Of a stretch of 64,000 nt of DNA, positions 45,627 to 46,067 are shown piece by piece; the stretch's first letter is position 1, and every line of letters starts with the position of its first letter. Both the position numbers and the translations under genes were made by a program. Source of the stretch: Escherichia phage FH3; sequence record OR886155.1, one strand, 5' to 3'. Under the pieces are notes generated by a model. The model saw nothing but the letters and a program-made list of their open reading frames with translations. It ran no database searches and had not been told where the DNA came from.

Positions 45627-46067
45627 TTATAGACAGATATAGACAGGTATGTCCATCTGATTTAGATACTTAAACATTATAGGTCTTACCTGAGACTGAT
45701 AATCTAACCCTCCATTACCACAGCCTAAAGGCGTTATCGCCAAAGATGTTATACCTTTCTCTTTGTAGGTAAATAGTAACTTTTGTAAACCTTGTTCTAT
45801 CCACTCTACCTCAGAACCATTCCTCCAATGTTTCTTGGTTGGAAAACACAGCCCTAATCTCCCATCATTTAACCTCTGTAGGAGAAGCTGTCCAATCTGG
45901 AATCCAGAGTTGCAAGCAACTTTATATCTCTCAAAAGCTTCAGGGTATCTTCTTTTATACTCCTTAGCCACTCCTGCACCCATTACACCAACTAGGTTCA
46001 CTGTACAGGTTACTGTTTGGACGTCCACCGTGAATACATTGGCTTTTCCTTCAAAAACAATAGCCAT
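45627..46067 (-). CDS. macro-domain protein (ADP-ribose binding/hydrolase fold)
   Basis: [23 protein letters not shown] and [16 protein letters not shown] match the two macro-domain signature segments; start at internal Met MAIVFEGK. Confidence 0.7.

Follow-up and report, generated by a model that had tools for sequence, protein, structure and literature searches.

A DarG2-class macrodomain in a variable gene slot of the Kuravirus Escherichia phage FH3, a probable orphan antitoxin against DarTG2

The macro gene and its locus

Escherichia phage FH3 (sequence record OR886155.1) carries, on the minus strand of the 64,000-nucleotide stretch analysed here (the window), a gene at 45627..46067 for a stand-alone macrodomain protein of 146 amino acids (aa) plus stop; the protein is the orthologue of gp37 of phage phiEco32 and is assigned below to the DarG2/TARG1 class of macrodomains. 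Read along the minus strand, the locus begins with a homologue of phiEco32 gene 40 and continues with an HNH endonuclease gene, a terminator-like hairpin, the genes of an Rz-like i-spanin and an o-spanin, and the macro gene, after which come the genes of a sigma factor (gp36), a SLOG/YAcAr protein (gp35), a deoxynucleoside monophosphate (dNMP) kinase and a 5'-3' exonuclease. The macro gene of Bas90, a relative with good annotation, lies within a leftward cluster of DNA-replication and nucleotide-metabolism genes; across the first 50 kb of the Bas90 genome (77.5 kb), the annotation lists neither an ADP-ribosyltransferase nor a NADAR protein. A stretch of 2.1 kb that includes the macro gene shares 99.9% identity with Escherichia phage 1-6af and 96.9% with phiEco32, and by sequence the source phage is a phiEco32-like Kuravirus of the Gordonclarkvirinae. 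At the protein level the identity to phiEco32 gp37 is 97.3%; the GenBank record of phiEco32 (EU330206.1) labels gp37 'Appr-1-p processing enzyme family'.

The ATG of the macro gene (46067-46065) overlaps the TAA of the upstream open reading frame (ORF; 46069-46067) in the sequence TAATG. The preliminary description of this DNA, made from the letters of the sequence, had pointed to this overlap with the stop of an o-spanin candidate, to two macro-domain signature segments and to a sigma factor and a SLOG protein downstream; the overlap is as described, both segments are present in the 146-aa ORF, and the two neighbours are confirmed by PHROG 1740 (E 3.5e-45) and by the Pfam family YAcAr, respectively. 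The mechanical ORF list also offers a 173-aa reading that starts from a GTG at 46148. Since the homologues are about 146 aa long and all begin with MAIVF or MPIVF, the true start codon is the ATG at 46067. Two ORFs run antisense to the gene on the plus strand, at 45835..46158 and 45839..45967; they are mechanical calls only, for which no homology search was made in view of the strong evidence for coding on the minus strand. Compared with the phiEco32 allele, the gene shows purifying selection, with a ratio of nonsynonymous to synonymous substitution rates (dN/dS) of 0.049; compared with a copy in the Chaseviridae, synonymous sites are saturated (proportion of synonymous differences, pS, 0.875) while 81% of the residues are retained. 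The dN/dS value and the retained residues indicate that the gene is functional.

Family assignment, fold and catalytic residues

The protein matches the general Macro family of Pfam (PF01661; 42.5 bits against a cutoff of 22, E 7.4e-11) and PHROG 335, which is named 'phosphatase' (E 6.9e-34). It also matches the DarG model of PADLOC (E 3.8e-45, profile positions 6-142 of 329) and the antitoxin_DarG equivalog of NCBIfam (NF048014; E 5.2e-42, positions 6-144 of 338); the latter score, 144 bits, lies under the full-length equivalog cutoff of 250 because the match spans only model positions 6-144 of 338. The MacroD/YmdB-type model of NCBIfam, PRK00431.2-2, yields 15.9 bits against a cutoff of 246 (E 0.009). 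Among structures in the PDB, the best phmmer matches are DarG of M. tuberculosis (5m3i, E 7.2e-28), DarTG of Thermosipho africanus (T. africanus; 7omu, E 2e-26) and DarG of T. aquaticus (5m31, E 1.6e-25), TARG1 being far weaker (E 0.008).

A profile search and a structure prediction had been proposed in the preliminary description as checks, and together they return a macro fold, predicted with a local distance difference test score (pLDDT) of 96.8, in which the ADP-ribose pocket is intact. The AlphaFold2 model, made with 62 homologues, is a three-layer alpha/beta/alpha macro fold with a predicted template modelling score (pTM) of 0.90. In a Foldseek search of the PDB with this model, ranks 1-4 are DarG macrodomains, with template modelling (TM) scores of 0.87-0.90 and root-mean-square deviations (rmsd) of 1.4-2.5, headed by T. 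aquaticus DarG (5m3e, TM 0.90, rmsd 1.4) and followed by TARG1; the top 50 matches are all macrodomains or macrodomain-based designs, and MacroD-type structures rank no higher than DarG or TARG1. By sequence and by predicted structure, the protein is a lysine-catalytic macrodomain of the DarG2/TARG1 class and not a generic macrodomain. At 146 aa it lacks the C-terminal DarT-binding domain of DarG and with it the full-length DarG architecture, and a search of the ORFs of the window with a DarT hidden Markov model (HMM) gave no match at E <= 10. Because the window holds no DarT-like ORF and the protein lacks the toxin-binding half of DarG, it would be an orphan enzymatic antitoxin.

In T. aquaticus DarG, the pocket is made up of N8, L9, T20, N22, V31, Q34, T79, G117, G119, N120 and G121, W83 stacks the base and K80 is the catalytic residue; the variants N22A, K29E, G119E and K80A are impaired (PMC5179494). 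By alignment, the corresponding positions of the phage protein are N10 (for N8), V11 (L9), T22 (T20), N24 (N22), V33 (V31), E36 (Q34), T77 (T79), G115 (G117), G117 (G119), N118 (N120) and G119 (G121) in the pocket, with W81 in place of the stacking W83, K78 in place of the catalytic K80 and A31 in place of K29. The key residues N10, T22, N24, V33, T77, K78 and W81 and the loop G115-C-G117-N118-G119 are thus all present; N24, K78, W81 and G119 are invariant among the 62 homologues, and the lysine-catalytic signature of the DarG/TARG1 class reads FPTKKHW in the phage protein.

Cellular relatives and characterised counterparts

One genome per prokaryotic species was scanned for relatives of the macro protein, the best 80 bacterial and archaeal loci (42-53% identity) were kept, and DarT genes were detected with an HMM made from seven Pfam-confirmed DarT proteins. 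A DarT-family gene directly adjoins the macro gene in 70 of the 80 loci and is nearby or fused in three more; the remaining seven have none. The macro clade thus partners DarT-type DNA ADP-ribosyltransferases almost without exception. Fifty-five of the 80 loci have a non-canonical order in which a macro protein of about 300 aa comes first and is followed by a DarT-domain protein, a 'long DarT' of 300-350 aa in which the DarT domain is N-terminal and about 130 aa extend beyond it at the C-terminus; the C-terminal half of the macro-first protein showed no match to the DarG model in the one member scanned (L035). This arrangement may represent a distinct DarTG subtype. Two metagenomic stand-alone homologues (P0064 and P0027) lie on contigs with few Pfam matches, which are uninformative on linkage to sigma or SLOG genes; one of these contigs holds a fragment matching an RNA polymerase beta-subunit domain (PF00562), and the contigs are possibly jumbo-phage-like. 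Statements on origin in this work are drawn from pairwise identities only.

DarTG2 is a relevant adversary for such a phage: the DarT of enteropathogenic E. coli modifies TTT/TCT in single-stranded DNA (ssDNA) and E. coli strains carry DarTG2 (PMC7003065), and coliphages are restricted by the system (PMC11825919). Two phage macrodomains, both called AdfM, have been characterised as its antagonists. In phage phiKZ, gp104 clears DNA of the ADP-ribose placed by DarT2 and relieves the toxicity of DarT2, and the phage needs it on P. aeruginosa hosts with DarTG2 (PMC13309987, Cell Rep 2026). The Kuravirus protein is 41.7% identical to it (tblastn E 1e-25), and both are stand-alone DarG2-class phage macrodomains of about 150 aa with an FPTK-x-x-W segment and an LGC-x-NGGL loop. 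By comparison with phiKZ AdfM, a protein that a jumbo chimallivirus imports into its phage nucleus, the protein described here belongs to a 76-kb podophage without a nucleus; it is also closer to DarG, with 39-42% identity to DarG macrodomains against 33-35% for phiKZ AdfM, and with a PADLOC DarG E-value of 3.8e-45 against 4.4e-39. In phage T4, Tk.4, which received the name AdfM independently, is the sole T4 gene required on a DarTG2 host, and its knockout makes the phage DarTG2-sensitive in E. coli (HIDEN-SEQ preprint, bioRxiv 10.1101/2025.11.20.689424). Tk.4 is likewise a stand-alone coliphage macrodomain that matches the DarG model; however, it shares only 20% identity with the Kuravirus protein, has no FPTKKHW in the alignment and reaches the DarG model only at E 1.3e-9, and the two probably represent separate lineages or acquisitions. 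On the PADLOC DarG model the Kuravirus protein scores better than both phiKZ AdfM and Tk.4.

Compared with the DarG2 macrodomains themselves (5m31/5m3e, 5m3i), the phage protein has the same fold (TM 0.87-0.90), 39-42% identity, the catalytic lysine and the ADP-ribose contacts, but DarG2 is a protein of about 340 aa with a C-terminal DarT-binding domain and an adjacent darT gene, whereas the phage protein has 146 aa and is phage-borne. Human TARG1/OARD1 (4j5s), of the ALC1-like/TARG1-like class, has its catalytic lysine at the equivalent position; it is however only about 20% identical (E 0.008) and has alanine where DarG and the phage protein have the base-stacking tryptophan. AdfN offers a parallel of another kind, as an orphan phage gene with the enzymatic antitoxin fold of a DarTG system, although that fold is NADAR, its target is the guanine-linked ADP-ribose made by DarT1 and it has no effect on DarTG2 (PMC11825919). 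By homology, the Kuravirus protein is what AdfM is: a phage-encoded stand-alone DarG2-like macrodomain.

An accessory cassette at the o-spanin/sigma junction

Alignment with the related phage IMEP8 shows that the macro gene belongs to an accessory cassette of 463 bp (45600..46062, minus strand). The flanks of IMEP8 are 93% identical, and there the stop of the o-spanin gene and the ATG of the sigma gene directly overlap (GAATAATGGCGAAGAAG); the window has 463 additional bases at exactly this point. They contribute the macro ORF, a sigma70-like promoter, the ribosome-binding site AAGGAAAG and an extra ATG, and are bounded by a 5-nucleotide direct repeat, ATGGC, at 46067-46063 and 45604-45600. 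A 201-bp probe across the empty site was used to survey 73 related records, RefSeq/GenBank duplicates included: 40 carry the 463-bp macro cassette, 30 are empty and three have an insert of 338 bp. The flanks of macro-minus phages are 96.1-96.5% identical to the window, as close as those of macro-plus phages, which therefore points to recent gain, loss or exchange and not to a deep split. Among relatives in the BASEL collection, Bas90 and Bas91 are macro-plus, and Bas92-94 and Bas87 are macro-minus.

The same slot takes other occupants. The 338-bp insert of EK010 and E20-1 (positions 500-838 of the EK010 locus) encodes a 112-aa DUF4326 protein (Pfam E 1.9e-17), and the DUF4326 and macro cassettes have both junction sequences in common (AATAATGG ... 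AAGGAAAGATGATGGCG); the more distant Bas87, which has no SLOG gene, holds an unrelated 74-aa ORF in the slot (PHROG 30479; positions 970-1194 of its locus), and in IMEP8 the slot is empty (position 1334 of its locus). Outside this group, the myophage vB_EcoM_DE15 of the Chaseviridae has an 81%-identical macro gene, surrounded by small hypothetical genes and next to the gene of the single-stranded DNA-binding protein (SSB); nucleotide similarity to the window stops with the macro ORF at either end, and this copy has neither a sigma nor a SLOG gene nearby. Such a pattern of presence, absence and replacement would be expected of a counter-defence gene.

DUF4326, an uncharacterised domain predicted to process ADP-ribose derivatives, is present in about 970 phage records, one of its sites being the nrdA.1 region of T-even phages. 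A speculative extension, which we regard as possible and on balance doubtful, is that the o-spanin/sigma junction of the Gordonclarkvirinae serves as a swap site for counter-defence cassettes directed at ADP-ribose. If this were true, DUF4326 would add a new anti-defence enzyme of analogous function, and gain or loss of the macro cassette would also alter the expression of the phage's developmental sigma factor.

Proposed function and alternative explanations

The macro protein is probably an orphan antitoxin of the AdfM type that removes, through K78, the ADP-ribose attached by DarT2 to thymidines of replicating phage ssDNA; the proposal draws on the sequence, the predicted structure and the analogy with the characterised phage enzymes. 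On infection, a DarTG2 system of the host would free DarT2, thymidines of phage ssDNA would be ADP-ribosylated and replication blocked. The macrodomain pocket (N10, T22, N24, V33, T77 and the G115-x-G117-N118-G119 loop) would then bind the ADP-ribose, with the modified base stacked on W81, and Lys78 would cleave the bond between ribose and thymine to restore replicable DNA. As there is no DarT-binding domain, the action would be purely enzymatic. The protein is probably made during phage DNA replication, given that its gene lies within the leftward replication and nucleotide-metabolism cluster. The preliminary description had placed the gene in counter-defence against ADP-ribosylating systems, of the DarTG or Thoeris type; counter-defence indeed appears the most likely role, and the DarG-class sequence, fold and residues, together with the DarT-adjacent relatives, point to DarTG2 specifically. 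A target of the Thoeris type, in which cyclic ADP-ribose (cADPR) isomers are the signal, is less likely for a protein of the lysine-catalytic DarG/TARG1 class, which is neither the MacroD class nor a small-molecule class.

Several observations weigh against this proposal. About 30 sister records do without the macro gene, so any benefit from it must be conditional. Two positions differ from T. aquaticus DarG: K29, where K29E is impaired, is Ala31 in the phage protein, and Q34 is Glu36; the active phiKZ AdfM likewise has alanine at the K29 position. A search of 5,426 complete E. coli genomes with darT-darG DNA of a Klebsiella plasmid, at the nucleotide level in distant mode, gave no match, the nucleotide divergence being too high for such a search to show how common DarTG2 is in E. 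coli. No paper in the searchable literature links Kuravirus or phiEco32 to DarTG, the mode and timing of macro transcription are themselves inferred, and enzymes of the DarG/TARG1 class have other activities: they hydrolyse U-linked ADP-ribose on RNA and deoxyuridine (dU)-linked ADP-ribose on ssDNA (PMC13036486), and TARG1 also removes ADP-ribose from protein, with glutamate as acceptor (PMC5179494), so the true substrate could differ. In this connection, the BASEL paper speculates that the DNA of Gordonclarkvirinae is modified, possibly with dU (PMC11990801); since DarG is active on ADP-ribosylated dU, such a modification alone would not make the enzyme superfluous.

This raises the question as to whether the protein acts on another macromolecule, be it RNA with U-linked ADP-ribose (U-ADPr), protein modified on Glu/Asp (as for TARG1), or the product of a host transferase other than DarT2, such as a 'long DarT'. 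The hydrolysis of U-ADPr ssRNA and dU-ADPr ssDNA by T. aquaticus DarG, SCO6735 and TARG1 (PMC13036486) gives this idea substance, as does the rank of TARG1, a remover of protein ADP-ribose (PMC5179494), as the next-best structural match, and 55 of the 80 closest cellular loci pair the macro gene with a non-canonical 300-350-aa DarT downstream. We nevertheless consider it unlikely: the protein is closer to DarG (E 1e-25 to 1e-28, TM 0.87-0.90) than to TARG1 (E 0.008, TM about 0.83), TARG1 outperforms T. aquaticus DarG on U-ADPr, a difference that has been read as DNA specificity (PMC13036486), and both characterised phage homologues counter DarTG2. An enzyme or binder of small molecules, which would destroy or sequester the cADPR isomers of Thoeris or ADP-ribose-1''-phosphate, would fit the labels 'Appr-1-p processing enzyme', 'O-acetyl-ADP-ribose deacetylase' and 'phosphatase' (PHROG 335) and the names of homologues at JGI, as well as the view that phage Macro, NADAR and SLOG proteins mainly target soluble ADP-ribose derivatives (Iyer et al. 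2022, PMC9503650). These labels are, however, generic transfers within the Macro superfamily, and the MacroD/YmdB-type model reaches only E 0.009; with the FPTKKHW lysine-catalytic signature, DarT partners as the nearest cellular relatives, and later experiments in which a phage DarG-like macrodomain acts on DNA (PMC13309987), a small-molecule role is very unlikely.

The preliminary description had further proposed that the macro protein, the sigma factor and the SLOG protein form a co-expressed functional or signalling module. Sensing of an ADP-ribose signal could, for example, be coupled to phage transcription in such a module. The genes are contiguous, lie on the same strand and have overlapping or closely spaced start and stop codons, other DNA viruses have Macro and SLOG together or as fusions (PMC9503650), and all 40 macro-plus Kuravirus records carry SLOG; this last overlap carries no information, since nearly every member of the group has SLOG (68 records) and the records are not phylogenetically independent. 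On the other side, the alignment with IMEP8 shows the 463-bp macro cassette gained or lost precisely and with no other change, about 28 of the SLOG-bearing records have no macro gene, Bas87 has the sigma factor and neither of the other two, the Chaseviridae copy has neither neighbour, and the sigma gene has a strong sigma70-like promoter by which it can be transcribed apart from macro; moreover, gp36 needs neither of these proteins to direct transcription in vitro with the core RNA polymerase of E. coli (PMC8948821). Comparative genomics therefore rejects the module, and joint action of the three proteins is hardly to be expected. The co-occurrence of Macro, SLOG, NADAR and DUF4326 at the level of whole DNA-virus genomes (Iyer et al. 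2022, PMC9503650) is the best argument for a looser functional theme, but it does not hold for a unit at the macro locus.

Transcription and neighbouring genes

The sigma70-like promoter of the cassette, TGGACA-18-TATAAT (11 of 12 positions; 45626..45655, minus strand), lies across the last codons and the stop of the macro gene and is aimed at the sigma gene, which could thus be transcribed independently of macro. A sigma70 promoter driving sigma gene 36 has likewise been predicted inside gene 37 of phiEco32 (PMC8948821). Sites with at least 11 of 12 matches number five in the window against 1.35 expected by simulation, all on the minus strand; the others are a perfect TTGACA-17-TATAAT at 53115..53087 and three sites within 8625-11314, and these sigma70-like sites are likely early phage promoters. 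Phages with an empty site, and apparently also the DUF4326 cassette, are without the TGGACA-18-TATAAT promoter, and phages that are otherwise near-identical may thus differ in their early expression of the sigma factor.

Upstream of the gene-40 homologue, an exact match to the gp36-dependent promoter element TAATGTATA lies on the minus strand at 47850..47858 (consensus from PMC8948821); matches to TAATGTATA in the window are not above chance, and this assignment rests on position. Within 47840-47939 there are also plus-strand copies at 47922-47930 (exact) and 47840-47848 (one mismatch), the former making a near-palindrome with the element at 47850; downstream of the plus-strand copy there is no gene on that strand. 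A terminator-like hairpin, AGCCACCTCCGGGTGGCT followed by T5, lies on the minus strand at 46576..46598, between the HNH gene and the i-spanin start, and is a consensus match only. The macro gene is probably transcribed from upstream; the nearest gp36-type element is that at 47850-47858, with the terminator-like hairpin in between. Searched with Rfam, the whole window shows nothing RNA-like at the macro locus; the one match in the window, a marginal tRNA far from that locus at 841-919 on the minus strand (29.7 bits against a gathering score of 29), is not called by ARAGORN and is probably not a functional tRNA.

Downstream of macro, the sigma factor (44960..45607, minus strand; PHROG 1740) is orthologous to the experimentally characterised gp36 of phiEco32, which is encoded by a middle gene and recognises promoters of the sequence tAATGTAtA (PMC8948821). 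The SLOG-superfamily protein that follows (44571..44963, minus strand), orthologous to phiEco32 gp35, just passes the cutoff of Pfam YAcAr, formerly DUF2493 (28.8 bits, cutoff 28.2); PF10686 is found in its homologues, together with PF02481 (DprA) in some of them. The gp35 model has a pLDDT of 94, and in the fold search the Rossmann-like domains of DprA come out best (TM 0.61-0.67), with the ShosA antitoxin at 0.64 (E 1.3e-3), the SLOG domain of ThsA at 0.54 and YpsA at 0.52; the protein has no significant sequence match in the PDB and no PADLOC match. The model confirms placement in the SLOG superfamily, and the fold data show nothing beyond the superfamily. DprA binds ssDNA, and ShosA is the antitoxin of the ShosTA defence system; a second orphan-antitoxin-like gene at gp35 is conceivable but weakly supported.

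Upstream of macro, the o-spanin candidate (46067..46327, minus strand; PHROG 2425) is annotated as o-spanin in IMEP8. Within the mechanical ORF (46067-46426), the probable start is M34, which gives a protein beginning MRKLNQFFIMSALVMSMSAC, with a signal peptide and a lipobox-like cysteine; relatives annotate an o-spanin of 57 aa without a signal peptide, and these database starts are probably too short, the sequence favouring a start at 46327. The Rz-like i-spanin gene (46212..46562, minus strand; PHROG 1152, E 1.9e-37) overlaps that of the o-spanin. Between the spanins and the gene-40 homologue lies an HNH/NUMOD4 homing endonuclease gene (46621..47034, minus strand; Pfam HNH_3, E 7e-13), which is absent at the same position in phiEco32; other HNH insertions occur nearby, within the region in KM01 and, in Bas87, splitting the Rz-like spanin gene.

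Significance

The macro fold and class, the concept of counter-defence by such proteins and the macro ('Appr-1-p processing') annotation in phiEco32 records are already known; the novelty seen in the preliminary description was overstated, as the gene was annotated and phage DarG-like macrodomains of the AdfM type were characterised in 2025-2026. Kuravirus gp37 as an AdfM, the cassette behaviour and the alternative occupant DUF4326 appear to be unpublished in the searchable literature, and the paper completing the BASEL collection contains no DarTG or macro data. The class assignment corrects misleading 'phosphatase' and 'Appr-1-p processing' labels in dozens of phage genomes. The macro-plus (Bas90, Bas91) and macro-minus (Bas92-94, Bas87) relatives in BASEL constitute a natural experiment on DarTG2 sensitivity, and, as Kuraviruses are used in E. 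coli phage-therapy work, the cassette could predict host range on clinical strains that carry DarTG2. If the proposed function is confirmed, orphan antitoxins of the AdfM type would extend beyond jumbo nucleus-forming phages and T4 to Kuravirus podophages and Chaseviridae myophages, and their gene would be one that moves between unrelated phage families.

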